This document shows positions 5,137-62,305 of a stretch of DNA of 64,000 nucleotides, one piece after another. The stretch comes from Thermoanaerobaculia bacterium (GTDB taxonomy: Bacteria > Acidobacteriota > Thermoanaerobaculia > Multivoradales > Multivoraceae), in assembly GCA_963664405.1 (NCBI GenBank), contig OY761158.1, positions 899,020 to 963,019 on the forward strand, in the 5' to 3' direction. The notes under the pieces are model-generated. The model had not been told where the DNA came from. It saw nothing but the letters and a program-made list of their open reading frames with translations, and searched no databases. The position numbers and the translations under genes were made by a program. How positions within the stretch are numbered: position 1 is the first letter of the stretch; the number at the start of each line of letters is the position of its first letter.

Positions 5137-5180
5137 GTCAGACTACCTCCAGGCCCGCCAACGAAACCCTACCCTTAGCG
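5137..5180 (+). repeat. 44-bp direct repeat copy A (att-like) immediately 3' of the recombinase
   Basis: gtcagactacctccaggcccgccaacgaaaccctacccttagcgg matches 6161-6205 with 2-3 mismatches. Confidence 0.7.
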
Positions 5181-7589: not shown

Positions 7590-9379
7590 TTGTCGCCCTC
7601 GATGAAGTACGTGCCGTTGGGCATGACGTGCTTGAACGGTAGCAGCGAGATGTGCGACAGATCCTCGTCGTCGATCGCCTCGCCCTCGGCTCGAAGCCGG
7701 TCGACGATCTCGCCGATCCGGACCGTGTTCCAGTACAGGATCGCGTTTGAGACGAGGCTCAGACAACTCGCCTTGTTCATGATCTCGACGTAGTCGCCGG
7801 TCGTGAACTCGCCTTGGTCGGCGAAGAAGATCCAGCGCGACAGCTTCTGTCGGTACTCTCCCTTGTTGAGCTGCTTCTGGACCGTCCGGCGCAGCTCTCG
7901 ATCGGTGAAGTATCGAAGGACGTAGTTCGTCTTCACCATGCGGCCGAGGCTGCGGACCGCCTTCGACAACCGATCGTGAGGAGACCCGCTAGTGAGGCGC
8001 TGTACGACCACGTTCGCTGGAGCCGTCCTCAGTTTGAGAGACCACGCGACCCGCATCATTGGATCCCACTGCTCCTCGATCAAGTCGAGGTCAACCGTCT
8101 TCCTCAGTAGAGGAGCGAACGCTCCTTCAGCCGAGGACCTCGATGGTCGATAGAGTTGCTGGCTCTTGAGGTTCTTGATCCGCGGCATGAAGTAGTACCC
8201 AGCAGGTAGCACAGAGCGAAGACGATCTCGGTGTAGCCATCCGTGTCGGTTGTATGTTCTCGGAGCCGGAGAATCGTGTTGTTATCGAGGAGACCGTCCA
8301 GGACGTAGAGCGCCTCCCGAGGACCACACGAGATCGCTCGCGTGCTGAAGACCGCGAACTGGTCGGAAACGTGCGTGTACAGGCTGATCCCTTTGTCGTA
8401 GTACCCGAAGTATCGGGGGTAGTACGACGCGAGGAGGCTGGCCGCACGGATCTTGAACCGCTGACCATCAGATGACGACGTCTGGCCATCGCCGTGGATG
8501 GCGCTCAGCGGTAGAGCGTGGTGAGCGTTGACGATGGCCGCGTTTGCATCATTCAGAGTCTCCTCCCGGATGTAGTAGTGGAGAACGTAGCGGAGCATGT
8601 CCAGAGTGACGCCGGTAACACTCGCGCTCATGGAAACGACGCCGAGGTTCGTTGCCTGGGAGATGATCGCTGCTAGCAGCGATTTGTAGAACTCCTCCGG
8701 CCTCGAGCGGTGTTGTTGTACCGGCAGGAAGCTCTGAGTAAAGCGGGTCGATCGATCGACATCCATGAGGAGCTGCTCGACCCGAACCAGCGGCAAGCTG
8801 GCGTTGATCATCTTCTGCAGTCGGCTCTCCGGCGGCTTCTTCTTGTCGTCTCGACGGAGCTTCAGCCTTCCTTGGTCGACCCGAGCGAATCGGTCCTGGC
8901 CATATCGACTGCCGGCTCGCCGGTTCCCGTCCTGAAACTCGTCGACAAGTCTCGGCCGCACCTCGGTAGGTTGGGGCTGCTCGAGGTCGGCAAATGAATC
9001 CGCCTTCGAATCCTCCCACCGATCGTCCGAGAGAAGGAGGTCCCAGAACGCAACGTGCTGTTTGCTCTCGGGGATGAATAGGTCCCCCGAGCGAAACGCG
9101 TCCCGGAGCGCCAGAGCCAGTCCGGTTTCCCAAGCGTTGCGATTGAGTGAGCCCGGCTCTTCTCCGGGAAGCACCGAGCGCAGGTCGCTCGCGACGAAGC
9201 CAGTCGGCGCGTCCGCGGGAAGGCTCTTGAGGGAGTCGCTCGAGTTCGTTCCCGGTCAACGACCAATCTCGGACAAGCTCGTCATCGGAAAGGCGCTCGG
9301 GTAGTGCAACCGCGTGGCGTCGCTGGCGGCCCGAGAGAAAGCGTTCCGGAGGAGGACGGTTTTCACTGATGCCGATCAC
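7586..9379 (-). pseudogene. tnpA: Tn3-family transposase TnpA remnant in three frames (9379-9260 N-terminus, 9174-8104 DDE region, 8212-7586 C-terminus); about 400 internal residues deleted
   Basis: Track ORFs 8549..9379, 8104..9174 and 7586..8212 hold, in order: the TnpA N-terminal motif (LSDDELVRDWSLT), the central DDE region (SSDGQRFKIRA...YFGYYDKGISLYTHVSDQFAVF...YVLDGLL...EHTTDTDGYTEIVFALCYLLG), and the C-terminal region (QLNKGEYRQKLSRWIFFADQGEF...LYWNTV...LSHISLLPFKHV). Total length is about 600 aa versus about 1000 for an intact TnpA. Confidence 0.8.
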
Positions 9380-9608
9380 CCCCTGGATTGTTCAGAGCAG
9401 TCCTCGTTCGTGGCGCCTCATGAGAGCGGTGACCGGGACGCGTAGTGCCTGATACTCAGGAGCCAGAGGGCTCGGGTGCGGTTTCAAGGTCGGACTACAC
9501 TAGCCCAACACGCTCTTCGTGAAGCTAGATAACGAACACGATAGGCGAAGAACGCGGAACCGTACCAAGGGCTGGGCAACTGGGACCGACCAACTGGCCA
9601 CTACCTCC

Positions 9609-9646
9609 GAGCGACCGGAACCGTAAGTTTTCGTTCAAATGCCCCC
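9609..9646 (-). repeat. Tn3-family terminal inverted repeat (right)
   Basis: Reverse complement of 9609-9646 matches IR-L at about 85%. Confidence 0.75.
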
Positions 9647-9653
9647 GCAGATC

Positions 9654-9815
9654 CATCCTGCGGAAGATCAGTATCACTTCCTCCGGATGCGGAATATGGC
9701 GCCGAGGACGGCGCATCCTGCGGAAGTGATCGGTATCACTTCCTTCGGATGCGGAATATGGCGCCGAGGACGGCGCACTTGGGCGTTGCTTCCTATCCGC
9801 TCCGGGGAACGGCAC
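9654..9815 (+). repeat. Tandem 62-64-bp repeat units; each unit holds a palindrome (GAAGTGAT-CGGT-ATCACTTC) plus the GC hairpin GGCGCCGAGGACGGCGC; member of a dispersed repeat family
   Basis: Two tandem copies of catcctgcggaag(tg)atc(g)gtatcacttcc(t)tcggatgcggaatatggcgccgaggacggcg, then cacttgggcgttgcttcctatccgctccggggaacgg. The same modules recur at 21016-21062 and 58281-58720. Confidence 0.6.
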
Positions 9816-9957
9816 AGGCAGAACCGAGCCGCGGCACCCCGTCCCCGGTTTCGTTTCCTGCCGCGCACTCCTCTAGCCGCCACTAGCTCAAGCGCTCAGA
9901 AACAAACTGCCCCGCTTCGACGTCAGAAGGGAAAGTCGAAAATCGAGGAGGAAGAAC

Positions 9958-17994: not shown

Positions 17995-19299
17995 CTAGCG
18001 TAGATTCTCCATCGCATCCACCGCAACGTTCGCCAGGGCGCGCACACCGAGACTGAGCGCCCCTTCGTCGGCAAAGAAGTGGGGCGAATGGTTACGGGCG
18101 ACAGTGGCCGGATCGGCACCCTCGGGAGCGACGCCGAGGAAGAAAAAGACTCCTGGGATCTCCTGTTGGTAGTGCGAAAAGTCCTCAGCGGTGGTGGTCG
18201 GGTCGACCACCTGCGCCTTGCCCTTCCCAGCCACTCGCACCAGCGTCGGAGCGATCATACTGGTCAGCTCGGGATCGTTATAGGTGACCAGATTGCCCCC
18301 ACCGAAGCGAATCTCCGCGGTAGCTCCCGCGCTCGCCGCGATCGACTCCGCAGTACGCCGGATCCGACGGTGCAATTCCAAGCGCACTTCCGGATCGAAG
18401 GTCCGCACTGTGCCAACCATCTCCACCTTATCGGGGATGATGTTGCCCCGCACACCTCCATGGATACTCCCTATGGTGATGATCGAGGGTGTCCGGGTCA
18501 CGTCGACTTGACGACTGACGATACTCTGTAAGCCCAAGATAACTTGGGAGGAAACGACGATGGGATCCACCCCTCCCCAAGGCACGGCGCCATGGGTCTG
18601 CCGACCGTGAATAGTGATGTACAGAGAGTCGCTCGAAGCCATGATGCCGCCGCTCCTGTAGCCGAGGGTGCCCAGGGGATAGGGGAAGACGTGGAGGCCG
18701 AAGATCGCTTCGGGCCGCGGATCCTCGAGAGCGCCCTCGGCGATCATCAAACGGGCCCCTCCCTTCTCTCCCCGCGGCGCCCCTTCCTCGGCGGGCTGAA
18801 ACAGAAACTTCACCGAGCCTCTCAAATGCTCGCGAAGGCCGCTCAGAACCTCTGCAACCCCCATCAAGATCGCCAGGTGCTGGTCGTGCCCGCAGGCGTG
18901 CATGACCCCGACCTCACGGCCCTCGTACATGGTTGTCTGGGTCGAGGCGAACGGCAGATCCACGAGCTCCGTTACCGGTAAGGCATCCATATCGGCACGC
19001 AGCGCGATCACCGGACCTTCCTCGCCGCCGCGAAGCAGCCCCACCACACCGGTGTGAGCGACCTCGGTGCGCACTTCAAGCCCCAGGGCCTCGAGATGCT
19101 CCGCGACTTTGCGCGCGGTGCGGACCTCACGATTGCTGAGCTCCGGATGGCGATGAAAGTCTCGACGCCACAAAACGACCTTCGCTTCGATCTCGGCCGT
19201 CAAACGGTCTATCTCACTTGCGAGGTCGGCGGCTCCGACCGGCAGAGCAGCCAGGCAAAGAGCGGCAACTAGACCAGCGTTTCCAAAGTTCGCGCACAT
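17995..19299 (-). CDS. M20-family amidohydrolase (peptidase M20D, hippurate hydrolase-like); the annotated start codon and first about 10 codons lie inside a MITE
   Basis: ...RRDFHRHPELSNRE...LRADMDALPV...HACGHD... are M20D signatures. The only in-frame ATG upstream of the signal peptide (LVAALCLAALPVGAA) is MCANFGNAGL, encoded by the MITE terminal repeat. Confidence 0.75.
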   Translation of the reverse strand: MCANFGNAGLVAALCLAALPVGAADLASEIDRLTAEIEAKVVLWRRDFHRHPELSNREVRTARKVAEHLEALGLEVRTEVAHTGVVGLLRGGEEGPVIALRADMDALPVTELVDLPFASTQTTMYEGREVGVMHACGHDQHLAILMGVAEVLSGLREHLRGSVKFLFQPAEEGAPRGEKGGARLMIAEGALEDPRPEAIFGLHVFPYPLGTLGYRSGGIMASSDSLYITIHGRQTHGAVPWGGVDPIVVSSQVILGLQSIVSRQVDVTRTPSIITIGSIHGGVRGNIIPDKVEMVGTVRTFDPEVRLELHRRIRRTAESIAASAGATAEIRFGGGNLVTYNDPELTSMIAPTLVRVAGKGKAQVVDPTTTAEDFSHYQQEIPGVFFFLGVAPEGADPATVARNHSPHFFADEGALSLGVRALANVAVDAMENLR

Positions 19300-19434
19300 A
19301 TCTCGGGCCCTTCTGCCCGCTGGCGTCGTTACGCCTCCTCGACATATTGCCCAATATGCCTGCGTCAGCGCGCCTAGCCAGCGAACAGAATGACCTCGAG
19401 CTATGCAGCACGAACTTTGGAAACGCTGGTCTAG
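19269..19434. mobile_element. MITE copy a (166 bp) with about 24-bp terminal inverted repeats CTAGACCAGCGTTTCCAAAGTTCG...CGAACTTTGGAAACGCTGGTCTAG
   Basis: About 90% identical to the copies at 46999-47163 and 48683-48846. It is perfectly bounded by CTAG and lies between the glpK stop and the M20 start. Confidence 0.75.
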
Positions 19435-19464
19435 TGCCCAGGCGTACTTTCTCAGAGCCGGCAT

Positions 19465-20961: not shown

Positions 20962-21015
20962 CGACTTCTCAGCTTAACAGCCTAGAGAACTGACGAGCTA
21001 GGCTGCCGAACAGGG

Positions 21016-21062
21016 TGCCGAGGACGGCGCGCTCTGCCGAAGTGATGGGCATCATAGGGACC
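21016..21062 (+). repeat. Third-locus copy of the hairpin-plus-palindrome repeat family, upstream of the Gfo/Idh/MocA gene
   Basis: ggtgccgaggacggcgcgctctgccgaagtgatgggcatcatagg parallels ggcgccgaggacggcgcatcctgcggaagtgatcggtatcac at 9700-9745. Confidence 0.45.
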
Positions 21063-23302: not shown

Positions 23303-25444
23303 GTGCGGCGTAAGCGAATCTTCTGGCCGATGGTTCTGCTACTGACTCAATGGCAATCGATCAGCTTGGCTCAATCCGCAGAGGAAGAACGAGCGCCGAG
23401 CTTTAGTGAGGCCCAGTCCGCCGCCGGAAAAGTCGCATATAGGAAACACTGTGCCTCCTGTCACAGGGCAAAGCTGGAAGGCTTCCAACTCGCGCCGGCT
23501 CTGGTTGAGAAGCGTTTCGATCAGTCTTGGCGCGGCAAATCCGCTGACATCCTGCAATTTCACATACGTCGCATGCCTCCCGAGCCGGCGGGAGAGCCCG
23601 GAAGCCTGAGCGACGAGACCTATGCGAATATCCTGGCCTACATTCTCCTTTCCAACGGCCTCGAAGCAGGGGGCGATGCTCTGCCCTCGGACTCATCTGC
23701 TCTTGCCGACCTGACCATACCGAGGTTGCCGGGAGTGGAGCTCGATCTAGGCGCGCCGGTCGTCGCGGCGGGCGAGTCCCAGCTACTGAAAGACCTGCCA
23801 ACGCTCACCAGTGAAGAGCTGCGCGACCCAACGCCCGAGGACTGGCTGCATTGGGGAAGAACTCTCGATGGGCACAGCTACAGTCCGCTGAAGCAGATCA
23901 ACCGTGGAAACGTGAAAGATCTGAAGCTGGCCTGGCGAGCGCCTCTTCGCTTCGGCAGCAATACTCCGGCTCCAGTGGTTCATCGAGGAGTGATGTTCCT
24001 TCACACACCTCCGGACACCGTGCTGGCGATGGATGCCACGGACGGCCGCGTGCTGTGGCGCTATCAGCGTAAAGGCATAGATCAGCCGACCAAGAAGAGG
24101 GGCGTCGCTCTCTACGGCGACATGGTGCTCGTGCCCACCTCCGACTTGCATGTGGTTGCCCTGAGCGCAAAGACCGGTAAACCGATCTGGGACCACACCC
24201 TCGACACAAGAGCACCAGACACCATGCGCCGCGGCTTTCACCTCAGAAGCGCCCCGCTGATAGCCAAAGACAAGGCCATCATCGGGGTCACGGTTTATGC
24301 ACCCAAGGGCGGCTTCATCCTCGCTCTGGACGTCAATTCGGGAAAAGAGGTGTGGCGGTTCAACACCATCGCCAGGCCGGGCGAGCCGGGGGAAAACAGT
24401 TGGAACGGCCTACCCCTGGAAAGGCGTAAAGGTGGGTCCGTTTGGCACCAGGCTACCTATGATGCGGAGCTGAACCTCGTCTACTTCGGTATCGCGCCGA
24501 CTTACGACACGGAGCCCCTCCTGATACCGATAGAGAAGGAGGGCATCAACAACGACGCGCTCTACACCAATTGCACCGTCGCCCTCGACGCCGATACCGG
24601 TGAGCTGATCTGGCACTATCAACACATGGCAAACGACCAGTGGGACCTGGATTGGGTCTTCGAGCGTCAGATCGCAAGCCTTAGCGTCGACGGCGAGCTC
24701 CGCAAGGTGGTAATGAACGTCGGCAAGATGGGGATCCTCGATGCTCTGGATGCAGCGACCGGCGAGTACCTATTCTCGGTCGACAGCGGGACGCAGAACG
24801 TAATTACCGCTATCGACCCTGAAACCGGCGCCAAAACCATCGACCCCGAGAAGGTGCCCAATTCGAAGCGAGGATCGCTGATCTGCCCGAGCGCTGTCGG
24901 CGCCAGAAGCTGGCCGCCGACTTCCTACAGCCCAAGGACGAAACTGCTGTACGTGCCCATCACCGAAGCCTGTTTGAACATGGGACCGACAGGACAAGGG
25001 GGCCGGCTACTCAGTACCGGTGTAGATCTGTCTCTGGCAACGCACCCGGATGCCAGTGACGGAATGGTAGGGCGCCTCCAGGCCATCGACCTTGTGAGCC
25101 ATGAATTGGGCTGGACCCACGATCAGCTCACTCCGCTTTCGACCGGCCTATTGACCACCGCCGGCGGGTTGCTCTTCTCCGGCGATATCGATCCCTCGTT
25201 GAAGGCTTTCGATGACGAGAGTGGTGAGCTGCTCTGGCAGGTCGAGCTCGACGACGCGCCCAGTTCGACCCTCGTAACGTACAGCGTTGACGACAAGCAA
25301 TACATCGCTGTCGTGGTGGGCCTGACAAATAATCATATCCGAGACATAACCAGCTCCTACCTAAAGTGGAGCAAGAGCATCGATACGCCGAGGGATGCCC
25401 CACCCAAAGGAGGGGCCGCCGTCTGGACATTCTCATTGGAATGA
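23303..25444 (+). CDS. PQQ-dependent dehydrogenase (beta-propeller quinoprotein) with an N-terminal c-type cytochrome domain (CASCH)
   Basis: GTG start. Signal peptide, then heme motif CASCH with downstream Met (IRRMPPEP), then PQQ propeller W-motif repeats. The stop overlaps the xylA ATG (ATGA). Confidence 0.75.
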   Translation: MRRKRIFWPMVLLLTQWQSISLAQSAEEERAPSFSEAQSAAGKVAYRKHCASCHRAKLEGFQLAPALVEKRFDQSWRGKSADILQFHIRRMPPEPAGEPGSLSDETYANILAYILLSNGLEAGGDALPSDSSALADLTIPRLPGVELDLGAPVVAAGESQLLKDLPTLTSEELRDPTPEDWLHWGRTLDGHSYSPLKQINRGNVKDLKLAWRAPLRFGSNTPAPVVHRGVMFLHTPPDTVLAMDATDGRVLWRYQRKGIDQPTKKRGVALYGDMVLVPTSDLHVVALSAKTGKPIWDHTLDTRAPDTMRRGFHLRSAPLIAKDKAIIGVTVYAPKGGFILALDVNSGKEVWRFNTIARPGEPGENSWNGLPLERRKGGSVWHQATYDAELNLVYFGIAPTYDTEPLLIPIEKEGINNDALYTNCTVALDADTGELIWHYQHMANDQWDLDWVFERQIASLSVDGELRKVVMNVGKMGILDALDAATGEYLFSVDSGTQNVITAIDPETGAKTIDPEKVPNSKRGSLICPSAVGARSWPPTSYSPRTKLLYVPITEACLNMGPTGQGGRLLSTGVDLSLATHPDASDGMVGRLQAIDLVSHELGWTHDQLTPLSTGLLTTAGGLLFSGDIDPSLKAFDDESGELLWQVELDDAPSSTLVTYSVDDKQYIAVVVGLTNNHIRDITSSYLKWSKSIDTPRDAPPKGGAAVWTFSLE

Positions 25445-46168: not shown

Positions 46169-47002
46169 ATGGCGGTATTCAACGCGCTCGTAAGGCGCCT
46201 CATCGACGCCCTCTTGGGGCCGTTCCAAAACTACCCGGCGATGGTGACTCTGCTGCCGATCTCGGTGGTGGTCACCGTTGCCGCGCTGTTGGTGCTCAAG
46301 CGAACCTCGAACCAGGAGGCTCTCAACCGCGTCAAGGCGAAGACGCACGCCGGCATCTTCGAGATCAGGCTCTTCAACGACGATCTGAGGGCCATCTTCT
46401 CGGCCCAACGGAACATCTTGGTTCAGGTAGCAAAGCAGATCGGCCTGACCCTAGTGCCCCTGCTGTGGATGCTAGTGCCGATGGCCGTCCTCCTCCCTCA
46501 GCTCCAATTCCAGTACGGCTACCTTGGCATCGAGCCCGGCGAGCCGGTGCTCCTCATCGCCACCCTCGACGCACCGCTGGGAGCCGACGAGACGAAGCCG
46601 GTCTTTCACCTCGAGACCCCCACCGGCGTTCGCGCGGAGACGGGGCCAATCTGGGTGCCCGCCAAGAACGAGCTGGTGTGGCGCCTGGTGGCGGATGAGC
46701 GCGGCAGCTTTGAGCTCTTGATCGTCGATGGCGGGGGAGGTAAGTCGGTCACCAAGAGCCTGGAGGTCTCGGACCAGATCCGAAGGCGCTCGCCGAAGAG
46801 GGTTACCGGCTTCTGGTCCCAAATCGCCTACCCCGCCGAGTCCCCGCTGCCGCCCGGTGCGCCTTTTCGGGAGATCTCCCTCGCCTACCGAGACGCAGAA
46901 GTCAGCTTTTTCGGCTGGGAGACCAACTGGATGATCGCCTTCCTCCTGCTCACCCTCGTCTTCGCCTTTGCCCTACGCGGGCCCCTTGGCGTCACCTTCT
47001 AG
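46169..47002 (+). CDS. Hypothetical membrane protein; its stop codon TAG is the terminal CTAG of a MITE
   Basis: 277 aa with several hydrophobic segments. It starts 12 nt after the small RHH-like gene. Confidence 0.55.
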   Translation: MAVFNALVRRLIDALLGPFQNYPAMVTLLPISVVVTVAALLVLKRTSNQEALNRVKAKTHAGIFEIRLFNDDLRAIFSAQRNILVQVAKQIGLTLVPLLWMLVPMAVLLPQLQFQYGYLGIEPGEPVLLIATLDAPLGADETKPVFHLETPTGVRAETGPIWVPAKNELVWRLVADERGSFELLIVDGGGGKSVTKSLEVSDQIRRRSPKRVTGFWSQIAYPAESPLPPGAPFREISLAYRDAEVSFFGWETNWMIAFLLLTLVFAFALRGPLGVTF

Positions 47003-47163
47003 ACCAGCGTTTCCGAAGTTCGCGCACAGTTCTCGGCCCCTTCTGCCCGCTGGCGGCGTTGCGCCTCCTCGACATAGTCCCTGCTATGCCTGCGTCGGCG
47101 CGCCTTGCCAGCGAACAGAATGACCTCGAGTTCTGTACACGAACTTCGGAAACGCTGGTCTAG
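46999..47163. mobile_element. MITE copy b (165 bp)
   Basis: ctagaccagcgtttccgaagttcg...cgaacttcggaaacgctggtctag. Same family as 19269-19434 and 48683-48846. Confidence 0.75.
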
Positions 47164-47216
47164 CCAGACGGCCGAGGCGGCCAGAGAGCGATCGCTCGTA
47201 GGAGACGCGCTCGCCC

Positions 47217-48682: not shown

Positions 48683-48846
48683 CTAGACCAGCGTTTCCAA
48701 AGTTCGCGCACATATCTCGGCCCCTTCTGTCCGCTGACGGCGTTTCGCCTCCTCGACATATTGCCAATATGCCTGCGTCGGCGCGCCTGGCCAGCGAACA
48801 GAATGACCTCGAGCTATGTATACGAACTTTGGAAACGCTGGTCTAG
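48683..48846. mobile_element. MITE copy c (164 bp)
   Basis: ctagaccagcgtttccaaagttcg...cgaactttggaaacgctggtctag. Its last CTAG supplies the TAG stop of the minus-strand gene 48843..49487. Confidence 0.75.
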
Positions 48847-49487
48847 TCAATCGCGAAGCAGTAGAAGTACCCGTTGCCGCCAGTTCCCTGCAAATCCTTC
48901 TGACCGCAGGCCCGGCTCCCATGAGCCGAGTTCCACGACGACGGTACCTGTCCGCCCCCTTGGCGATCATGGTGGCCGACCTGCGCACTGCCGGCACCGT
49001 TCGTTGTCCAGTTGCTGCAGGTGTGATCTTTGCCGTCGGTGAAACGGGTCCCATCCAACTGGGACCCGGTCAAGATGTCGTGCATATTGGGATCATCACC
49101 CCGGCCGTTGACAACCTCGCCCTTTTCATTGAGCTGCGTCTCTTTGGTGAGACCTACGTTCGAGTAGTGCAGCTCGCTGACGTTGGCGGCAACCTGCGCT
49201 CCCTTGGCATTGAACCAGGGCCCTGAACCGATGCGGCCTCTGGCATCGACCCCTCCGGAGCCACCCGTGCTCAAATAAGCGTGCCATGTCTTGGCGCCGC
49301 CACCCGCAGCCTTCGCCAACATGGCGCAGTGTCGGTCGGCCCCATCGAGCCCCCCGAGGTTGGCACCGTCACCCGACCCCCGGCTGGTAATGAAGAAACT
49401 CATCGCACCCTTCTCCTGCGAGAGAACGGGCGAAGCCGCCACTGCCAATATCGTTCCAACAAGTAGACATCTGATCTCGACCTTCAT
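48843..49487 (-). CDS. Secreted Gly/Asn-rich protein of unknown function
   Basis: Start trimmed to MKVEIRCLLVGTILAVAASPVLSQE, a signal peptide. The rest is low-complexity Gly-rich with conserved Cys residues. Confidence 0.55.
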   Translation of the reverse strand: MKVEIRCLLVGTILAVAASPVLSQEKGAMSFFITSRGSGDGANLGGLDGADRHCAMLAKAAGGGAKTWHAYLSTGGSGGVDARGRIGSGPWFNAKGAQVAANVSELHYSNVGLTKETQLNEKGEVVNGRGDDPNMHDILTGSQLDGTRFTDGKDHTCSNWTTNGAGSAQVGHHDRQGGGQVPSSWNSAHGSRACGQKDLQGTGGNGYFYCFAID

Positions 49488-49634
49488 CGGTTTTCCTCCA
49501 CACTCCTCATCATACGGGTTCCGGGGTCTGCTAGCCACGAGCCTCACTCCGGAAGGATAGCCTAGCTCACCCATCGACCTCTACCGGCATACAATGCGTT
49601 CTCTCCCAAGCTTCCGACAGGAGGAAGAGATCTC

Positions 49635-51485
49635 ATGCGCTCCAGGCCGCTGACATTGTTTCTCTGTACTGCGCTCTTTGCGACATACGCGGTTGATTCT
49701 GCCAATGCTGCGCAGCAGGCTGCGGCACCCGCCGGCGACGACTGGCCGATGTATCGCGGCGATCTGGCCGGCACCGGCTACTCGGCCCTGGCCAAGATCA
49801 CCCCCGCCAACGTTTCGAGCCTCACGCGGGTGTGGACCTACTCTCTCGAACGCACCAATGGGGGTGGCGGAGGCAACCTCCAGGCGACGCCCATCGTTGT
49901 CGGAAACGTAATGTACCTCCCCGCAGCAGACCGCGTGGTCGCGCTCGAGCCCGCGACAGGGAGCGAGATCTGGCGACATCTCGTCACTGACGGCAGCCCC
50001 TCTCGCCGCGGTGTCGCCTACTGGCCGGGCGAGGGCCGAACGCCCCCACGCATCATCTTCACCGCCGGACGCCGACTGCTCGCTCTCGATGCCGCGACCG
50101 GCGCACCGATCTCGAGCTTCGGGCACAACGGCGAAGTCGACATGGTGGTGCCCTACAACTCGGTTCCTCTCGTCCATCGCAATGTCGTCGTCGTCGGCGC
50201 CAACACTCCACCTGGAACGAGCGGCGGCATCGGCAATGCAAGAGCCTACAACGCACGCACCGGCGCCAAGTTGTGGGAATTCAGCTCGGTGCCACTGCCC
50301 GGTTCCGTGGGTCATGACACCTGGGAAGGCATGAGCTGGAAGGACCGACTCGGCGCCAACGCGTGGCCGTTCTATTTCACCGTCGATGATGAGCGCGGGC
50401 TCCTCTACATACCGCTCGCCTCGCCCATCCCCGGCTACTACGGTGGCGACCGCAAGGGCGCCAATCTGTTCGGAAACTCCGTTGTCGCGGTAGACCTCCA
50501 AACAGGTGAGTACAAGTGGCACTTCCAGACCATCCATCACGACCTCTGGGATGCTGATCCCCCCGCGCCTCCTGTCCTGTTCGACATCAAAAGAAGTGAT
50601 CGAACGATCCCGGCACTCGGCCTGACCACCAAGTCGGGCTACGTCTACATTCTCGACCGTGCCACCGGAGAGCCGATCTTCGGGGTCGAAGAGCGCGCGG
50701 TTCCCGCAAGCGACGTCCCGGGCGAGGCTGCGTATCCGACTCAGCCATTCCCCACGAAGCCGCTGCCGGTGGGTCGTGTGAGCTACGAGCCTGAGGACCT
50801 GGTGACCGCCGCAGACACGAGCGCGGAGCACGCCGCCGCCTGCGCCGAGCTACTCGCGACCCTCGGTGAAGTCCACAACGCCGGGCCCTTCACCCCCTGG
50901 GCCTATCGCACCGACGGCGCTCCCGCCAAGACCACGTTGAATTTTCCCGGAGGCCTCGGCGGACACAACTGGGGCGGCGGCGCCTTCGACCCATCCTCCG
51001 GCTATCTCTTCGTCGTCAACCAGGACGTCGGTGCGCTGGGCTGGATGGTCGACTCCGACGACCCGACGCGAGGGTCGTATCGGCGCGTCGGCCCAAGGCC
51101 CGCAAGCTTTGAAGTTCAAGTCGGGGGAGTCCGAATGCCATGCCAGAAACCACCCTGGGGCCGACTCACAGCGATCGACTCCTCGACCGGGGACATCGCC
51201 TGGCAGCGCCCTCTCGGCATTACCGAGCAGCTCCCTCCAGACCGCCAGAACACCGGACGGCCCGTACGAGCCGCAGCCATCGTCACCGCCAGTAGCCTGC
51301 TCTTCGTCGCTTCGACCGACGACAACCGCTTCCGAGCCTTCGAAGCGACAACGGGCAAGGAGTTGTGGGAAGACCGACTCCCCCGACACGGAAATGCCAA
51401 CCCCATGACCTATCGGGGCAACGACGGCAAGCAGTACATCGCTCTGGTCGCGCTCGATACGTTACTCGTCTACGGGCTGCCGTAG
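49635..51485 (+). CDS. PQQ-dependent beta-propeller dehydrogenase (glucose/aldose dehydrogenase-type quinoprotein), secreted
   Basis: Signal peptide. [14 protein letters not shown]... and repeated W-motifs ([38 protein letters not shown]) mark the PQQ propeller. Confidence 0.8.
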
Positions 51486-51664: not shown

Positions 51665-53119
51665 ATGACCCGGATTGCAGAGATCGTCGTCGCAACGGCC
51701 AGGTCCTGGCCGCGGCGGAGCGCACGCGGATTGCGCGCGGCCGCCCTGTTGCCATTCCTCGGTAGCTTGGCGTGCGTCAGCGAGGCACCGCGAAAGGGCA
51801 AGCCCACTATCGTGATCGTCATCGCCGACGATCAGGGCTGGGGCGACCTCAGCCATCACGGCAACACCAACCTCGAGACACCGAACATCGATTCGTTGGC
51901 TCGAGACGGCGCCAGCTTCCGCCACTTCTTTGCCAGCGCGGTGTGCTCGCCGACGCGTGCCGAGCTCCTCACCGGCCGTTACCATCCGCGAGGCGGCGTA
52001 CGCGGGACCAGTGCGGGAGCCGAGCGATTGGATCTCGATGAACGTACTCTCGCCGAGACCTTCAAGCATGCCGGCTACGCGACCGGCGCCTTCGGCAAGT
52101 GGCACAACGGTAGCCAGCATCTCTACCATCCGAACGCGCGTGGATTCGACGAGTTCTACGGCTTCACCTCGGGCCACTGGGCGCTCTACTTCGATCCACC
52201 GCTGGATCACAACGGTCGAGCCGTCCGCGGGAGCGGCTTCATCATCGACGACCTCACCGATCATGCGCTGAGCTTCATCGAAGACAACGCCGCGAAGGGC
52301 GAGCCTTTCTTCCTCTATGTCCCGTACAACACGCCGCACTCGCCGATGCAGGTACCCGATCGCTTCTACGAGCGCTTCGCCGGCGCGGAATTGCCTCTCC
52401 GCCATCGCGACCCGGACAAAGAAGATCTCGAGCACACGCGCGCGGCAATGGCGATGGTAGAGAACATCGACTGGAACGTCGGCAGACTCCTCCACCGGCT
52501 CGACGAGCTCGGTCTGGGGGACGACACCCTCGTTCTCTATATGAGCGACAACGGTCCCAACGGCTGGCGCTGGAACGGTGGCATGAAGGGGCGCAAGGGC
52601 ACCCTCGACGAAGGAGGCCTGCGGGTTCCGGCCTTCGTGCGCTGGCCGGGGAAGATTGATGCAGGGCAGGAGGTTGAGCCGATCGCTGCCGCCATCGACC
52701 TGCTACCGACTCTCGCCGAGCTGGCTGGAGTCGAGGTTGTGGGTGACCGGCCCCTCGACGGCCGGAGCTTGGCGCCGCTTCTTGTCGGCGAGCGAGCGCA
52801 GGAGACGTGGCCGGACCGCGAGATAGCCAGCTTCCACCGTGGCGAGGTCACTCTTCGCACCCAGCGCTTCCGCCTCGACCCCGAGGGTCGCTTGTTCGAT
52901 CTGCAAGAGGATCCGGGTCAACGCGTCGACATCACCGACAAGCAACCGGCCGAGGCTCGACGGCTGCAAAGATTGGCGGAAGAGCTCTCCGCCGAGATGG
53001 CCGGAGAGCTCGGGCCGGTAGACGATCGACCGTTCCTTATCGGAGGAGACCGCGATACCTTGGAGACCTGCTCGAGCACCCGATGCGGCGGGCAGTGGTT
53101 TCGTCTTCAACTCTGGTGA
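51665..53119 (+). CDS. Arylsulfatase (formylglycine-dependent sulfatase)
   Basis: Start trimmed to MTRIAEIV. ...[14 protein letters not shown]...[15 protein letters not shown]... is the C-x-P-x-R FGly motif, followed by the GKWH block. Confidence 0.85.
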
Positions 53120-55255: not shown

Positions 55256-56734
55256 CTAGAAGAAGAGCTGAACCCGTTCCCCGTGGAGCTCATGCACTGT
55301 CGAACGGGTGGCGGGCCACATCGGGTCCGCCAGGGTGGAATTCCAGCTCGCAAGCTCGCCTTCGAGACGCTCGACGATCTCCGGATGCTCCTCGGCAAGG
55401 TTGGTCTGCTCACCCTCATCCACAGACAGGTCGTAAAGCACGGTCATCTGGCCCATCGGCGATTCGCCGGAGTGCGCCACCACCGGTAACAATCGCGGAA
55501 AGGCCGCGAAGTCGTCGTCACCGAGATCGGTCTTGTTCACCTTCCACATTTTCCACTTTCCCCATCGCACCGCGAGATTGGGCTTGGCACGCCAGAACAG
55601 TAGCTCGTGTGGCGGCCCGGTCGCCGCGTCGAGGAGGTGGGGCATCAGATCGACGCTATCAAGCCCGCGCTCTTCGGAACCGGCGACGGCGGCAAAGGTC
55701 GAGTAGAGATCCAGCGAGATGATCGGCTCACGGTACACGGTGCCCCGCGCCAGCCTGGCCGGCCATTTGAAGAGGAACGGCACTCGAATGCCGCCTTCGA
55801 GGTGATAACGCTTGGCGCCACTCAGAGGCGCGTTGGTGCAGATCTCTGCCGGCATGTAATTGACGCAGCCGTTGTCTGAGAAAAACACGACCAAAGTGTT
55901 CTCCTCGAGCCCGTGCTCACGAAGCTCGTCCACCACGTCGCCGACGTAGTCGTCCAACGACGCCACCATCGCCGAATAGATCCGCCTGCCGTCCTCCTCG
56001 ATGTGGGCATAGCGGTCGGTGTATTCGGCGGTTGCCTGGATCGGCGTGTGGGGGGTCTTGGGGGTGAGCATCAGAAAGAAGCGCTCTTCCTTGTGACGGG
56101 CGATGAAGTCCACCGCCTTGTCGGCATAGACGTCGGTCAGATAGCCCTCGACTTCGACCCGTTCGAAACCGTCGAAAGCCATCGCGGGGGTCATCGGCGC
56201 CATGTCGGCCGGCCACGATTGCACTCCCTCGACTCTGGAATCGATGTAGGAAGCGCTACTGCCGCCGAAGAATTCGTCGTAGCCGCGGTTGAGCGGGTTG
56301 TGCGGCTCATCTTGGCCGAGGTGCCACTTGCCGATCAGTCCGGTGACATAGCCCGCGTCTTGCATCAGATTGCCCAAAGTTCTGAGATCGGTCGGCAGCT
56401 TCGCGACCCCGCCTCCCGAGTCGTTGAACTCATAGCCGAAGCCGGTCGGGTAGCGACCGGTCTGCAACCCCGCACGAGACGGACTGCACACCGCGGCGGC
56501 GACATAGCCGTCGGTCAGACGAACGCCGTCGCGGGCCAGCCCATCGATATGGGGCGTTTGAATCGTCGTCCCACCGTAAGCCCCGAGATCACCGTAGCCA
56601 AGATCGTCGGCCAGAATGACCACGATATTGGGCGGCTCGTACGAAGTCTCCGTGGACGGTGGCGCGTCGGTTGTGGGCAGCTCGCCACACGCCGCGAGCG
56701 AAAGGGCAAGCAGAAAAGTCGGTGAGCGCCTCAT
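55256..56734 (-). CDS. Arylsulfatase lipoprotein
   Basis: Lipobox LALSLAACGE. IVVILADDLGYGDL...AAVCSPSRAGLQTGRY... and the GKWHLG block. Confidence 0.85.
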   Translation of the reverse strand: MRRSPTFLLALSLAACGELPTTDAPPSTETSYEPPNIVVILADDLGYGDLGAYGGTTIQTPHIDGLARDGVRLTDGYVAAAVCSPSRAGLQTGRYPTGFGYEFNDSGGGVAKLPTDLRTLGNLMQDAGYVTGLIGKWHLGQDEPHNPLNRGYDEFFGGSSASYIDSRVEGVQSWPADMAPMTPAMAFDGFERVEVEGYLTDVYADKAVDFIARHKEERFFLMLTPKTPHTPIQATAEYTDRYAHIEEDGRRIYSAMVASLDDYVGDVVDELREHGLEENTLVVFFSDNGCVNYMPAEICTNAPLSGAKRYHLEGGIRVPFLFKWPARLARGTVYREPIISLDLYSTFAAVAGSEERGLDSVDLMPHLLDAATGPPHELLFWRAKPNLAVRWGKWKMWKVNKTDLGDDDFAAFPRLLPVVAHSGESPMGQMTVLYDLSVDEGEQTNLAEEHPEIVERLEGELASWNSTLADPMWPATRSTVHELHGERVQLFF

Positions 56735-56812: not shown

Positions 56813-58279
56813 ATGAGCTCGGTAACGCCCTTCCTCCCCGCTCTGCTACTCCTCGCTGGGTGCCGGGGTCCAGATCCTTCTCGCCGTGACTCTCGTCGAG
56901 CAACCTTCCCCGCACTGACGGTCGCCGAGGCTCCAACAACGGCGAGGACCCCGGAGGGTCAGTACATCTCGTGGAAGGAGCACCGCATCGACGATCAAGA
57001 CCTGAACGGCGGCATCGAGCTGCGCGGCGGTGACGGCCTCCAGATGGCCGACCTCGATCGCGACGGTCACCAGGACATCGTCTCGGTCCACGAAGACAAC
57101 TACCACATTCGTCTCGCCTTCGGCACCGACGATCCGGACCGGTGGGAGCTCGCGACCTTGGCGGAAGGCGAGGAGGCGAACGCCGCCGAAGACGTCTCGA
57201 TCGCGGACGCCAATGGCGACGGCTGGCTGGACATCGTCGCCGCGACCGAGCTGGCGCACCTGATCTACTTCCAGAACCCCGCAGACCCCACCGAGACACG
57301 CAGTGGCGCATGGCCGCGCACGATCCCGCCGGGCACACGAGACCGAGGCTCCTGGATCCGGGTCTTCTTTGGCGACTTCGACGGCGACGGCAGGCCGGAA
57401 GTCTCGGGTCCGAACAAAGGCGACCAACTTCCCGCCGAAAAAGAAGGACCGGCCGAGTTCGCACCCAAAGAGATCTCCTGGTTCGAGCTACCCGGGGACC
57501 CTCTTGCCGGCGATCTGTGGGAAGAGCACGTGCTGGTGCGGATCAAGATCCCGATGAACGCTCGACCTGTAGACCTCGATCGCGACGGCGACCTCGACAT
57601 TCTCGGTGGCAGCCGCTTCGAGATGCGCCCCTTCTGGTTCGAGAATGTCGGAGGGTCGCCGACCGACTTCGAGCTTCACCCGATCGACGTAAGCGGTCGC
57701 AACCAGGCGCAGCCGGAGATCTTCGGCGGCAAGTGGCTGACAGCGATGAACGTCGTCATCGAAGACCTCAACGACGACGGCCGGCTCGACATCATCCTCC
57801 AGGAGACGCCCTTCATAGTCAGCTGGATGGAGCAGCCTCCAAGCTTCAACCAGCCCTGGCAGCTACACAAGATCGGCGACTTGAGCCCCGACACGTCGAC
57901 CGGTCTTACCTTGGTCGACATCGACGGCGACGGGCGCAAGGATCTATTCACCGGCGGCTACAGCCAGAACCCTCGCGATCATGACGGTGAGGACATCACC
58001 ACGAACAGCCAGACCGGACGCCTTGCATGGTGGAAGCAGCCGGCGGACCCGAGCGCCGAGTGGACCCTGCACAACGTCAGCCGTCGCAAGCGCGGCATGT
58101 ACGACCAGTTCGTCGCCCGCGACATGGATGGTGACGGAGACGTCGACTTCGTCACCACGCGAGGCAACAGCGGGACTTACGACGGCGTACTCTGGCTCGA
58201 GCAGGTCCGCACTGCCGAGCAGACCCGGTCGTTCCTGCCGGCCCGCGAGAAGGAGAGCGCCCACCTCCCCCTGCCCTAG
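56813..58279 (+). CDS. FG-GAP/VCBS-repeat (integrin-alpha-like beta-propeller) lipoprotein
   Basis: Lipobox LLLLAGCRG. Repeated D-x-D/N-GDG Ca-binding-like loops (ADLDRDGHQD, ADANGDGWLD, FDGDGRPE, DLDRDGDLD, LNDDGRLD, DIDGDGRKD, DMDGDGDVD). Confidence 0.75.
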   Translation: MSSVTPFLPALLLLAGCRGPDPSRRDSRRATFPALTVAEAPTTARTPEGQYISWKEHRIDDQDLNGGIELRGGDGLQMADLDRDGHQDIVSVHEDNYHIRLAFGTDDPDRWELATLAEGEEANAAEDVSIADANGDGWLDIVAATELAHLIYFQNPADPTETRSGAWPRTIPPGTRDRGSWIRVFFGDFDGDGRPEVSGPNKGDQLPAEKEGPAEFAPKEISWFELPGDPLAGDLWEEHVLVRIKIPMNARPVDLDRDGDLDILGGSRFEMRPFWFENVGGSPTDFELHPIDVSGRNQAQPEIFGGKWLTAMNVVIEDLNDDGRLDIILQETPFIVSWMEQPPSFNQPWQLHKIGDLSPDTSTGLTLVDIDGDGRKDLFTGGYSQNPRDHDGEDITTNSQTGRLAWWKQPADPSAEWTLHNVSRRKRGMYDQFVARDMDGDGDVDFVTTRGNSGTYDGVLWLEQVRTAEQTRSFLPAREKESAHLPLP

Positions 58280-58280
58280 C

Positions 58281-58720
58281 CGGGGAAAATGATGGATATC
58301 ATTTCCCCCGACTAGTTGTTCTTTGGCGCCGAGGACGGCGCACTCAGGCGGTGCTTCCTATTCGCTCCGGGCAGCGGTCCGGTTTCCTTCCGCGCAGACT
58401 CCTCTAGGAAGCCTGGACCACAGGAGCTACGGGTGCGCCGTCCTCGGCGTCCTTCCCGAGAGCGGCTCCGCAGGAGCCGGTCGAGTTGACCGCCGTGGAG
58501 CTCGCGCCAGCGAGGTCACAAGAACAACAATGAGCCGGAGGAAATGATAGCCATCATTTCTGGAGGCGAAGCCCGAACGCTAGGAGAGTGTCCGAGTATT
58601 CGGCCAGAGCCGTTTCCCGGAGCGAGTAGGAAGCAACGCCCTAGTGCGCCGTCCTCGGCGCCAACAACAATGAGCCGGAGGAAATGATAGCCATCATTTC
58701 TGGAGGCGAAGCCCGAACAC
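58281..58720. repeat. Dense composite repeat array: three AAATGAT-N4-ATCATTT palindromes (58286-58307, 58541-58560, 58685-58704); a 55-bp inverted-repeat pair built on GGCGCCGAGGACGGCGCAC (58324-58380 versus 58605-58662); and a 57-bp direct repeat (58519-58576 and 58663-58720) that duplicates the last codons of the PQQ-ADH gene
   Basis: Read directly from the sequence. The modules match those at 9654-9815 and 21016-21062. The region lies between the convergent 3' ends of 56813..58279 and 58694..60358. Confidence 0.7.
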
Positions 58721-60358
58721 GAAGAGCGCGCTGCCGGCGGCGGCAGCTACGTACTGCTTACCTTCGACGGCATACGTGATCGGACAGCTGGCAATCGACC
58801 CGCCCAGAGTCGCCTTCCACAGCAGCTCACCCGTCTTCGCATCGAGGGCGTGGAAATAGCCCTCGCGGCCGCCGGCGAAAACGAGGTCGGAGGCCGTGCT
58901 CAAGACGCCACTCTGAGTGACATCGGTCATCTTGAATCGCCAACGCTGCTCGCCCGTTCGCGGATCGAGAGCCAGTACCGCACCGTTGGCGACGTCTTCG
59001 GTCCAGTTATTGATCAGTGGGCGACCCCTACCCGTCACGCCCGGCGCTCCGGGGTTCGGACTGGTCGGCGGACCACCCAAGAAGCGTTGACCGGGTCGGT
59101 ACTCGACCTCCACCGGTCGGAACACATGTCCGCAGTTCTCCCATGCAGAAACGTAGATCAGCTCGGTGTTGGGGCTGAACGAAGGAGAAAACCAATTCGT
59201 GCCTCCGGGAACGCAAGGGTAGGTCGTCGCTCCGAGGGGTTGAGGGGTCTCGATCGGTCGTCCCTTCTCGTCGAGCCCGCTAGCCCAGTTGACCTTGACG
59301 AAGGGCGTCCCCCTGATGAATTCGCCGGTGGCGCGGTCGAGCACATAAAAGAAGCCGTTGCGGTTTGCCCACAGCATGAGCTTGTCGCTGCCCACTCCGG
59401 TGACGTCTAGATCGACGAGCACAGGAACCTGGACCGCGTCATAGTCATAGTCATCGTTGGGAGTGAACTGGAAGTGCCACTCGAGCTCGCCGGTATCGGC
59501 GTCGAGCGCGACGACAGAGTCGGAGTAGAGGTTGTCGCCGGGTCGTTGGGCCGGATTCCAGTCCGGCCCCGGGTTGCCGATGCCCCAGTAAGTGAGGTTG
59601 AGCTCGGGGTCGTAGGAGCCGGTGACCCACACCGACGCACCACCATGCTCCCAGGCGTCGCCGCCGCCCTCCCAGGTCTCATGGCCAGGCTCCCCGGGCC
59701 CCGGGATGGTGTAGAAACGCCACACTTCATCCCCGCTCACGGCATCGTAGGCGGCAATGAACCCGCGGATTCCGTACTCGCCGCCGGCAACGCCGACGAC
59801 GACCTTGTCACCGATGACCAGGGGAGCCAGGGTCATCGCGTAGCCCAGACTGGGGTCGGCAACCGCGGTCTTCCAGATCGGTCGGCCGGAGATGGTGTCG
59901 ATCGCGATCAACTGCGCGTCGATCGTCGCCATGAACAGAGTCTCGCCGAGAATGGCGAGGCCCCGGTTCACCGAACCACAGCACGGTCTCGACTCGGAGG
60001 AAGGGACGTGCTCATACCTCCAAAAGGCACTTCCGAGCTTGGCGTCGAGAGCGATCACGGTGTTCGGCGCTTCGGTCAGATACATAACACCGTCGACCAC
60101 CAGCGGAGTGGTCTCGAACTTTTCCAACGACCGAGCCTGGAACACCCACTTCATTTCCAGCTCGCCAACGTTGTCCGGTGCGATCTGCCGTAACAGACTG
60201 TGGCGGGTACTCGCGTAATCGCCGGAATAGGTGAGCCAGTTGTGCGGCTCTTTCGCGGCTTCGAGCAGGCGTTTGGACGTCACCTGTGCGCTCAGGCTCT
60301 GAGCCGGCAGCATCAGCGAGAGAAGCAACAGGCCGGCACGACTCATGAGTCTGCGCAT
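58694..60358 (-). CDS. PQQ-dependent alcohol dehydrogenase (methanol/ethanol family, XoxF/ExaA-like)
   Basis: Start trimmed to MRRLMSRAGLLLLSL, a signal peptide. ...NWLTYSGDYASTRHSLL..., the CC ring (RPCCGSVNRG) and propeller W-motifs follow. The start overlaps the upstream cytochrome stop (TAATG). Confidence 0.85.
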   Translation of the reverse strand: MRRLMSRAGLLLLSLMLPAQSLSAQVTSKRLLEAAKEPHNWLTYSGDYASTRHSLLRQIAPDNVGELEMKWVFQARSLEKFETTPLVVDGVMYLTEAPNTVIALDAKLGSAFWRYEHVPSSESRPCCGSVNRGLAILGETLFMATIDAQLIAIDTISGRPIWKTAVADPSLGYAMTLAPLVIGDKVVVGVAGGEYGIRGFIAAYDAVSGDEVWRFYTIPGPGEPGHETWEGGGDAWEHGGASVWVTGSYDPELNLTYWGIGNPGPDWNPAQRPGDNLYSDSVVALDADTGELEWHFQFTPNDDYDYDAVQVPVLVDLDVTGVGSDKLMLWANRNGFFYVLDRATGEFIRGTPFVKVNWASGLDEKGRPIETPQPLGATTYPCVPGGTNWFSPSFSPNTELIYVSAWENCGHVFRPVEVEYRPGQRFLGGPPTSPNPGAPGVTGRGRPLINNWTEDVANGAVLALDPRTGEQRWRFKMTDVTQSGVLSTASDLVFAGGREGYFHALDAKTGELLWKATLGGSIASCPITYAVEGKQYVAAAAGSALFVFGLRLQK

Positions 60359-61204: not shown

Positions 61205-62305
61205 GTGCCGCACACTCCCATCGGCCGTCTGACGATACTCCTTGCCGCCGTCGCCACCGGCTGCGGAGCGACCGTCGCGATCGCGCAGCGCGGTGCCGAT
61301 TTCGGCACCGAACCGCCTCATGTCATTCTGGTCATGGCCGATGACCTGGGCTGGGGCCAGACCAGCTACTACGGCCACCCTCTCCTCGAGACTCCGAACC
61401 TCGACGCCATGGCCGACAACGGACTGCGCCTCGACAGGTTCTACGCCGGCGCCCCTTCCTACACTCCGACCCGAGCCAGCGTGCTCACCGGTCGCAACAA
61501 CGATCGTACCGGGGCGGTCCGGGTTCCCGGCCCGATCAACAAGCAGGAGAAGATGATGCCGGTCGCCTTTCAGAATGCGGGCTACGCGACCGCGCATTTC
61601 GGCAAATGGCATCTCAACGGGCTCCACGCCAGGCCGGGTTTACCCATCCTGAAAGAAGACCCTTACCATCCCGGTGAGCTGGGCTTCGACTACTGGCTCA
61701 GCTGCTCGAACAATTTCGATCGCGACCCGATCCTGAGTCGCAACGGCGACATCGAAGAATTCGAGGGTGACTCCTCGGAGATCCTCGTCGAGGAGGCGCT
61801 CAGCTTCATCGAGCGAGAGACGGCCCAAGACAAGCGCGTTTTCGTGGTCATATGGTACTCCTCGCCACACCGGCCGTTGGCCGCGTCCGAGGAGGACGCC
61901 AAGCCCTTTAGCCATCTCGATCCGGGCTCCCGCGACCACCATGGCGAGATTGTGGCGATGGATCGCTCCATCGGCGCCCTACGCAGTGGCCTTCGCGACC
62001 TCGGCATCGCCGAGAACACTCTGGTCTGGTTCAAGAGCGATAACGGCGGCCTACCCGACATCGACTACGGCCCTGGCTACGGCCCCATCGTGCCGGATAC
62101 CACCGGCCATCTGCGAGGATTCAAGAAGGACTCCTACGAGGGCGGTCTGCGGGTGCCTGCGCTGATCGAGTGGCCGGAGCGCATTCAGCCACGAATCACC
62201 CACTACCCCACCAGCACGATGGACATCTTTCCCACCCTGATCGAGGTCGCGGGCCTCGACCCCCGCCGGCTGCCGAGAACCGTCCCTATTCACCGTCAGT
62301 CGATC
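61205..62305 (+). CDS. Sulfatase N-terminal catalytic domain (FGly-dependent) lacking the usual about 100-aa C-terminal subdomain; abuts DUF3604 in another frame
   Basis: Signal peptide. ...HVILVMADDLGWGQ...APSYTPTRASVLTGRN... is the C/S-x-P-x-R-type motif region, then the GKWHL block. Sulfatase-like sequence runs to about ...IHRQSIALIP, after which frame 2 degenerates and stops at 62485. Confidence 0.7.

Follow-up and report, generated by a model that had tools for sequence, protein, structure and literature searches.

Two convergent genes lie in the window (the entire 64,000-nucleotide stretch of DNA that was analyzed), a FG-GAP repeat protein gene at 56813..58279(+) and a PQQ alcohol dehydrogenase gene at 58694..60331(−), both identified by Pfam matches; a 414-nt spacer separates their stops. 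The region between them is dense in nested symmetries. All three palindromes named in the original prediction are present in the form GAAATGAT-N4-ATCATTTC, at 58286-58305 (one mismatch), 58541-58560 and 58681-58700, the third having been placed at 58685-58704; this pattern matches four times in the window, including a variant at 9723-9742, versus 0.01 expected matches. The 55-nt inverted repeat is likewise real (58323-58377 and 58610-58664, 89% complementary), and a further pair, I3 (58287-58323 and 58663-58699), extends it to ungapped arms of at least 91 nt. When gaps are allowed, the arms span two 132-nt units in their entirety, 58276-58407 and 58580-58711, with an overall identity of 75%; the repeat originally seen is the best-conserved part of these two opposed units. 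The internal inverted copy of the hairpin module corresponds to a lone GC hairpin, GTGCGCCGTCCTCGGCG, at 58433-58449 (17 of 17 bases), a sequence with six matches in the window versus 0.16 expected. The direct repeat is exact but measures 56 nt, with 58523-58578 identical to 58663-58718, its first copy having been placed at 58519-58576. Across all of these features, the earlier coordinates differ from the remeasured ones by at most 4 nt.

Alignment of the local copies with copies elsewhere defined the anatomy of a ~130-nt unit, which reads, from A to B, CTAG, palindrome A, CTAG, T-rich linker, GC hairpin g, core B, tail, and CTAG. Module A is an imperfect palindrome of 32-40 nt, (G/C)CTCCA GAAATGAT NNNN ATCATTTC CTCCG(C/G). 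The linker that joins hairpin A to g is TTGYCYTTT, and hairpin g, GCGCCG AGGA CGGCGC, is invariant across copies. The conserved core of B reads AC..GGC..TGCTTCCTATTCGCTCCGGGAAACGG, the tail ends in CTCGGACACGCTC followed by CTAG, and in the family pattern five unspecified nucleotides separate GGACGGCGC from GGCG. The composite A-B unit possesses no terminal inverted repeats; its left end, CTAG(G/C)CTCCAG, and the reverse complement of its right end, CTAGGAGCGTG, have only CTAGG in common, while hairpin A, when solo, trivially constitutes an inverted repeat by itself. Adjoining modules share one CTAG, and the number of modules varies, with A only, A-g, A-g-A-g-B, and A-B arrangements all represented. 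In one sub-family (L001 6800-6820, L015 1333-1347), hairpin A is separated from the linker by 15 additional nt (GCGCGCCCCGSCTAG), found in copies of two separate origins. A third CTAG-bounded module of ~91 nt (L002 2368-2458 and 4033-4111; L009 1954-2044) has the last 23 nt of tail B in common and stands head-to-tail with A-B units; the TAG stop of an ORF at L002 1478..2371 falls in the end of this module.

With this anatomy in hand, the region can be read from the FG-GAP gene toward the dehydrogenase. Unit 2 is a full A→B copy on the plus strand (58276..58407; nhmmer E = 4.6e-38, and alignments). The TAG of its first CTAG (58276-58279) is the stop of the FG-GAP gene, closing a 489-codon ORF with a GC3 of 0.81; the hairpin A3 core follows at 58286-58305, a second CTAG at 58312 leads into the T-rich linker TTGTTCTTT, hairpin g lies at 58327-58343 with the B core and tail after it, and the terminal CTAG occupies 58404-58407. 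The middle segment (58408..58522, minus strand) is made up of a 25-nt tail (58408-58432) that matches the tail after g in the relative L017 described below, the fragmentary GC hairpin g2 (58433-58449), recognized by its match to other copies, and 73 nt (58450-58522) that found no relative among the compared sequences; within the middle segment, only the g part matches other copies. Next on the minus strand is the 56-nt exact duplicate (58523..58578, 100% identical to 58663-58718), which comprises module A1 and 11-12 nt of the native dehydrogenase 3′ end. Unit 1, the second full A→B copy (58580..58711, minus strand; nhmmer E = 9.7e-36), has its B-end CTAG at 58580-58583, g1 at 58644-58660, and the hairpin A1 core at 58681-58700. 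Its 5′ CTAG is missing and the unit forms an in-frame fusion to the dehydrogenase, the last eight codons of which (58694..58718, minus strand) are inside the repeat, as judged from the translation and the C-termini of homologues.

Unit 1 shares 87-89% identity with the L002, L006, and L009 copies and 75% with unit 2; the two units are thus separate members of a family, not the two ends of one element. Since the units are opposed, the whole region (a folded stretch of 456 nt) forms one long imperfect hairpin on either strand, with z = −9.6 and −11.6. The 440-bp region is best read as an insertion hotspot at which members of a small repeat family with hairpins have piled up, and not as one structured element.

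The same convergent gene pair is found without the array in two close relatives, L017 and L018, the contigs of the two further proteins in the 90% cluster of dehydrogenase P0001; both are low-coverage (‘2x’) assemblies with frameshifts, in which indel-level detail is uncertain. In L017, where the flanks are 96–97% identical to the window, a 75-nt spacer consists of A, the linker, g, and a 26-nt tail, and is devoid of the B core, unit 2, and the duplicate. In L018, where the flanks are 93–96% identical, ~20 nt lie between the stops, and the spacer is a single perfect palindrome, a solo hairpin that overlaps the stop of the dehydrogenase and adjoins that of the FG-GAP gene. These sites agree with the original proposal that inserted repeat elements build the array. 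Conservation of the array in relatives had been named as the outcome that would favor an ancient RNA gene; its gain and loss among close relatives argues that the array is not such a gene. The FG-GAP stop reads gccCTAG[unit 2]CTAGgaagcc in the window (filled) and gccGTAGggagcc in L017 (empty), and either insertion or precise loss is possible for this pair. The empty site in the relatives is GTAG and not CTAG, with GTAG replacing CTAG only on one strand at the L017 and L018 sites; TA, TAG, CTAG, or insertion 3′ of a fixed motif without duplication are all compatible with these sequences. Of the 26 positions in the L017 tail, 19 (73%) agree with the window tail that follows the lone g and 8 with the sequence after g1. 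As the L017 tail matches what follows g2 and not what follows g1, the L017 arrangement can, judging by these sequences, be derived from a window-like one by a single recombination between the two direct g copies. The three close relatives, whose spacers at this gene pair measure ~20, 75, and 414 nt, furnish a natural series for repeat gain and loss. Among dehydrogenase orthologues at 78–80% identity, L004 showed no downstream synteny, and these orthologues supplied no pre-insertion state. Elsewhere in the relatives, 276 and 314 nt are missing inside sulfatase genes compared with the window (L017, near 3729 and 11087, and L018), and the dehydrogenase and FG-GAP ORFs are split (L018 2972-4452 and 4472-5938); these gaps and split ORFs are probably assembly errors or pseudogenes.

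The repeat has also altered the dehydrogenase itself. The 120 closest dehydrogenase homologues mostly end in ...LFVFGLR[DE]*, and an 80%-identical orthologue ends GGC GAC TAG g, such that CTAG overlaps its stop. Translation verified that the second copy of the direct repeat encodes the ...FGLRLQK* terminus of 58694..60331(−). Within this terminus, FGLR (58706-58717) is native, and LQK with the TGA stop (58694-58705) is contributed by the left arm of hairpin A, which reads C CTC CAG AAA TGA. The first copy of the direct repeat, described as carrying the same codons out of gene context, does hold the native FGLR codons (GTTCGGGCTTCG, encoding (V)FGLR), but its LQK* is element sequence. LQK* is therefore not a copied native gene end, as had been supposed; element sequence replaced the native end, and had already done so in both relatives. 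The C-termini are FGLRLQK* in the window, FGLRLQSLQK* in L017, and FGLRLQSLQSLQK* in L018, following the number of copies of a 9-nt unit, GCCTCCAGA, which belongs to the left arm of hairpin A and encodes LQS in frame: one copy in the window (58699-58707), two in L017 (6652-6669), and three in L018 (4430-4456), giving the endings LQK*, LQSLQK*, and LQSLQSLQK*, respectively. By this comparison, the element-derived LQK* ending is older than the divergence of the three relatives. Removal of CTAG from CTTCG-CTAG-CCTCCAG yields the junction CTTCG|CCTCCAG. A stop-bearing CTAG would thus have been lost at the dehydrogenase (4-7 nt, or 7 nt if the ancestor ended in ...RD*), whereupon translation would have run three codons into hairpin A to the TGA.

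The 56-nt duplicate lies inside the array, adjoining the B-end CTAG of unit 1 and 140 nt from its source. Its native part is 11-12 nt, GTTCGGGCTTC(G), corresponding to (V)FGLR, and the remaining 45 nt are module A. It is identical to its source throughout, while the L017 module A differs at 4 of 45 positions, and it is missing from both L017 and L018. From these comparisons, we read the duplicate as having probably arisen recently and locally, through slippage or a template switch in hairpin-rich DNA.

The family extends well beyond this spacer. The window contains three family loci, the second of which (9658..9877, plus strand) comprises two tandem 62-nt repeats of an A′ hairpin and g, and, after these, a B tail interrupted by an insertion; the A′ hairpin there carries the compensatory changes GAAGTGAT/ATCACTTC. 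The third is a degenerate fragment, g and then an A-like hairpin, at 21001..21060 (plus strand). A strict B-core pattern, the only one applied, hit at least three loci on the 1.6-Mb contig CAXWPL010000005.1 of a related Acidobacteriota MAG. A CTAG-hairpin-CTAG pattern hit 12 JGI metagenome contigs, of which 11 are family members, with nhmmer E-values from 1e-17 to 3e-43; the match in L016 (43% GC) is probably due to chance. Profile searching with nhmmer recovered 13 near-complete units and several solo A hairpins. Rfam 15 returned no match at gathering score in the window, the only other hit being a chance-level gntR-DTE of 16.6 bits at E below 10, and a literature search for the repeat sequences found no paper. 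As far as these searches show, the A-B family appears to be undescribed; it is a new family of a familiar general kind, the small non-autonomous intergenic repeats. A tRNA-linked integration site, considered as a candidate, was ruled out as the window holds no tRNA genes.

Other mobile sequences and repeats reside in the window. The hairpin array at 9.7 kb begins directly after the right inverted repeat of a Tn3-family remnant (window 7500-9654), in which a transposase remnant at 8104-9174(−) (PF01526, E = 4.6e-63) lies between 32-nt inverted repeats, 7500-7531 and 9623-9654, bearing a GAACGAAAAC motif; a ParA-like ORF is located nearby at 7002-7589. A 41-nt direct repeat (5137-5177 and 6163-6203, 95% identical and 1026 nt apart) contains AACGAAAC, like a Tn3-type end, and may be a further remnant of the same mobile region. 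Weak coding repeats (63–78%) derive from paralogous PQQ-dehydrogenase/sulfatase genes, 24553-24636 and 50457-50528 versus 59454-59539, as well as 52059-52104, 55656-55701, and 61566-61611; these are unrelated to the A-B array.

Family copies end sharply at CTAG, in most copies on both sides. This tetranucleotide is depleted four-fold in the window (57 observed versus 218 expected; GATC and TCGA occur 548 and 776 times, respectively), and 15 of the 57 (26%) are in or at repeat elements that constitute 2% of the sequence. Approximately nine of the 57 overlap the stops of long ORFs. All copies lie either outside genes or at their ends. The sample of copies is small and was found by way of the A hairpin; in 10 of its ~17 members, a long, high-GC3 upstream ORF is closed by the TAG of the A-end CTAG. 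Two further ORFs, that of the window dehydrogenase and one in L012 unrelated to it, run on to the hairpin TGA and acquire an ...LQK* ending (...SLQK* for the L012 ORF). The B end is at a stop in 2 of 13 units; in both, the A end is at a stop as well, and the unit exactly fills the gap between convergent genes. Where only one end is on a stop, it is the A end in six to eight units and the B end in none, which, for all the smallness of the sample, is unlikely under random orientation. At each flank of the array, the A end of one full unit abuts the stop codon of the convergent gene. A second family, whose ~168-bp repeats have terminal inverted repeats of 37 nt starting CTAGACCAGCGTTTCC, is present in the window (19268-19435, 46999-47164, and 48683-48847) and in L003 (365-532); its terminal CTAGs hold the TAG stops of ORFs 46169..47002(+) and 48843..49574(−), and it recurs in a related MAG at ~90% identity.

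We next consider structure. Hairpin A folds with z-scores of −3.3 to −6.2 versus shuffled controls, the exception being that of unit 1 (z = −0.3), in which the outer stem is disrupted because the 5′ CTAG is lost. Two lines of evidence suggest that the pairing in hairpin A is maintained: i) in 14 copies, seven pairs are changed on both sides, as in CTAGGC...GCCTAG versus CTAGCC...GGCTAG, compared with 3.7 in shuffles (1 in 500 of which reach the observed number) and one or two in slid controls, and ii) the internal loop is replaced and fully paired in L001, L008, unit 2, and the 9.7-kb copy. Hairpin g never varies and thus yields no covariation evidence. Beyond hairpins A and g, the unit folds no better than shuffles (z = −0.5 to −2.1). 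B was considered as a structured RNA and rejected; the third hairpin proposed by RNAalifold poorly pairs two direct repeats (CTCAGG), and the variable dinucleotide after GGC has no covarying partner.

Hairpin A has a predicted free energy of −20 to −40 kcal/mol and extends from the stop codon on; in A→B units, TTGYCYTTT comes after it. An internal loop breaks the stem, the top of which is rich in A/U, the T tract is not continuous, and solo A copies are without one. A simple consensus terminator scan did not call hairpin A, and scans of the region found no promoter-like site and only two terminator-like sites, both weak and inside B. We tentatively entertain the possibility, judged less likely than not, that the hairpin at the stop together with TTGYCYTTT serves A→B units as a terminator or as a stabilizer or protector of the 3′ end; such a role would explain the orientation bias. 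REPs located within ~15 nt of a stop codon can lower the expression of the upstream gene, and by analogy the same could apply to A-B units.

Taken together, a model emerges in which the A-B units are a non-autonomous, CTAG-associated repeat family of the REP/MITE type, and the region comprises two independent, opposed copies, a g-tail fragment, and a 56-nt duplication, with the unit possibly acting as a portable terminator; we hold this reading at a probability of roughly 75%. The units would be mobile DNA with CTAG/TAG, or a position beside it, as the point of entry, and copies would survive mainly where the entry TAG is a stop codon or lies in a spacer. Every unit would bring new CTAGs and hairpins, and copies could accordingly accumulate and recombine at one site; this would give rise to the nested symmetry. 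Candidate enzymes would be of the IS630/IS5-like, CTAG-targeting type or of the single-strand Y1/RAYT type; for the latter, insertion by Y1 3′ of a fixed tetranucleotide would fit a unit without terminal inverted repeats. A screen of 10 window ORFs found no transposase of the A-B unit, no RAYT, and no Y1 transposase.

Could the region instead be a single insertion? The original prediction likened it to a MITE with its own terminal repeats; in such a composite element of ~340-440 bp, arms of 55-130 bp would be the terminal inverted repeats, and one insertion would have duplicated the gene end as its target. The long inverted repeat, the folding of the whole region as a giant hairpin, and the native gene codons in the direct repeat are all as this reading would have them. 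Yet each arm is a complete ~130-nt unit that is found singly at unrelated loci elsewhere, the arms are a mere 75% identical with unit 1 nearer to foreign copies, and L017 retains part of the unit-1 side without unit 2. Furthermore, the direct repeats do not flank the inverted pair, as copy 1 lies inside it, and the proposed target-site duplication of 56 nt is far above any known one; module A accounts for approximately 45 of the 56 nt, and the family's apparent target duplication does not exceed CTAG. We thus regard a single composite MITE as very improbable. Hardly more probable is that local duplication and rearrangement alone, by slippage or template switching at a terminator hairpin already in place, built the region without any mobile element. 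To this, one may credit the exact duplicate close to its source, the 62-nt tandem duplication at 9.7 kb, the 9-nt in-frame repeat present one, two, and three times in three relatives, and the derivability of L017 by recombination between direct g copies; units of ~130 nt that recur with 75–90% identity (87–89% for unit 1) at unrelated loci of several genomes are what it leaves unexplained. Local rearrangement clearly also happens, on top of the dispersed family.

A stronger rival, though still an unlikely one, holds that the units are a functional structured RNA, a 3′-UTR module or a small RNA, kept under selection with the B core as a protein or RNA binding site and with mobility secondary or absent. 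The B core and g, with its AGGA loop, are almost invariant across genomes in which the flanking genes differ, the units are co-oriented with upstream genes, and hairpin A covaries. Against this stand the lack of an Rfam match, the shuffle-like folding outside A and g, the invariance of g, which denies it covariation evidence, and the missing array at the orthologous site of close relatives; invariance would be equally expected of a transposase recognition site or of recent spread. That the array is an assembly artefact of collapsed or chimeric repeats is about as improbable as the composite MITE; inverted and direct repeats are typical sites of misassembly, but independent assemblies contain units bounded in the same way, the genes on either side are intact, and the LQK-ended protein is on record from a 6.78-Mb contig. 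Returning to the dispersed family of mobile repeats, a bolder version, to which we assign a low probability only slightly above that of the structured RNA, is that the A-B unit may be an undescribed module that, without terminal inverted repeats, integrates at TAG/CTAG and is kept in one orientation as a ready-made gene end. Such an end would comprise stops in three frames, a hairpin from the stop codon on, a U-rich tract, and the invariant B core bound by a putative factor of the host or the element. If true, a self-spreading ‘portable 3′ end’ would be shaping termination and C-termini across an Acidobacteriota lineage.

An odd-looking region is in this way explained as a hotspot of a small repeat family, documented in a poorly studied phylum, and the model also offers a reason for why the repeats land on stops. 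The repeats rewrite protein C-termini, here from FGLR[DE]* to FGLRLQK*, LQSLQK*, or LQSLQSLQK*, which cautions that gene ends and ‘structured RNA’ candidates annotated in these genomes may be repeat-derived.

Among known systems, the A-B family bears resemblance to several. REP/BIME elements are GTAG- or CGTC-tagged palindromic repeats mobilized by RAYT tyrosine transposases, and the ends of GTAG-REPs frequently supply the TAG stops of flanking ORFs (Di Nocera et al. 2013, PMC3733652). Module A is similar to these in being an extragenic imperfect palindrome of 32-40 nt that occurs solo or in mosaic clusters of alternating orientation, and in carrying at the foot of its stem a tetranucleotide ending in TAG that is often the stop of the flanking ORF; REPs also have proposed roles in termination and mRNA stabilization. 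Module A differs in that its stem carries CTAG as the tag on each side in nearly all copies (GTAG at one L018 site), rather than GTAG or CGTC at one end, and in that the top of its hairpin is A/T-rich, while the usual A-B unit adds a ~90-nt asymmetric conserved tail, g and B, that is missing from REPs. With CTAG-targeting MITEs, the family has in common that it is small, non-coding, multi-copy, and dispersed, with presence/absence polymorphism at the 58-kb locus, that CTAG stands on both sides, as after duplication of a CTAG or TA target, and that the co-resident 168-bp family, which does have terminal inverted repeats, likewise places its CTAG ends on stop codons. IS630 targets TA within CTAG (cited in the reference list of PMC2170065), and MITEPsy1, which derives from the IS5-family ISPsy2, duplicates CTAG on insertion (PMC3189936). 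The A-B unit, being without terminal inverted repeats, departs from the classical definition of a MITE.

A unit of this build also invites comparison with the elements mobilized as single strands. Palindrome-associated elements derived from IS200/IS605 have asymmetric ends without terminal repeats and carry subterminal hairpins; as a rule, the left and right cleavage motifs in this family are not identical. By analogy, the A-B unit could be seen as similarly asymmetric, with a hairpin at the left end, a small hairpin, CCGA-N4-TCGG, at the right, and a fixed tetranucleotide flanking it on the left and closing it on the right, as expected for insertion 3′ of a specific target; its left and right cleavage motifs would, however, be identical, and we know of no Y1 transposase or TnpB partner for it. 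BOX elements of S. pneumoniae, ERIC, and Correia sequences are modular repeats able to modify the ends of genes and to supply terminators or RNA-processing sites. The A-B family shares with these a modular build, a variable number of modules, and an expected co-transcription with neighboring genes; it differs in having no sequence relationship to them and in residing in a host of another phylum, and its tie to CTAG/TAG stops is much tighter.
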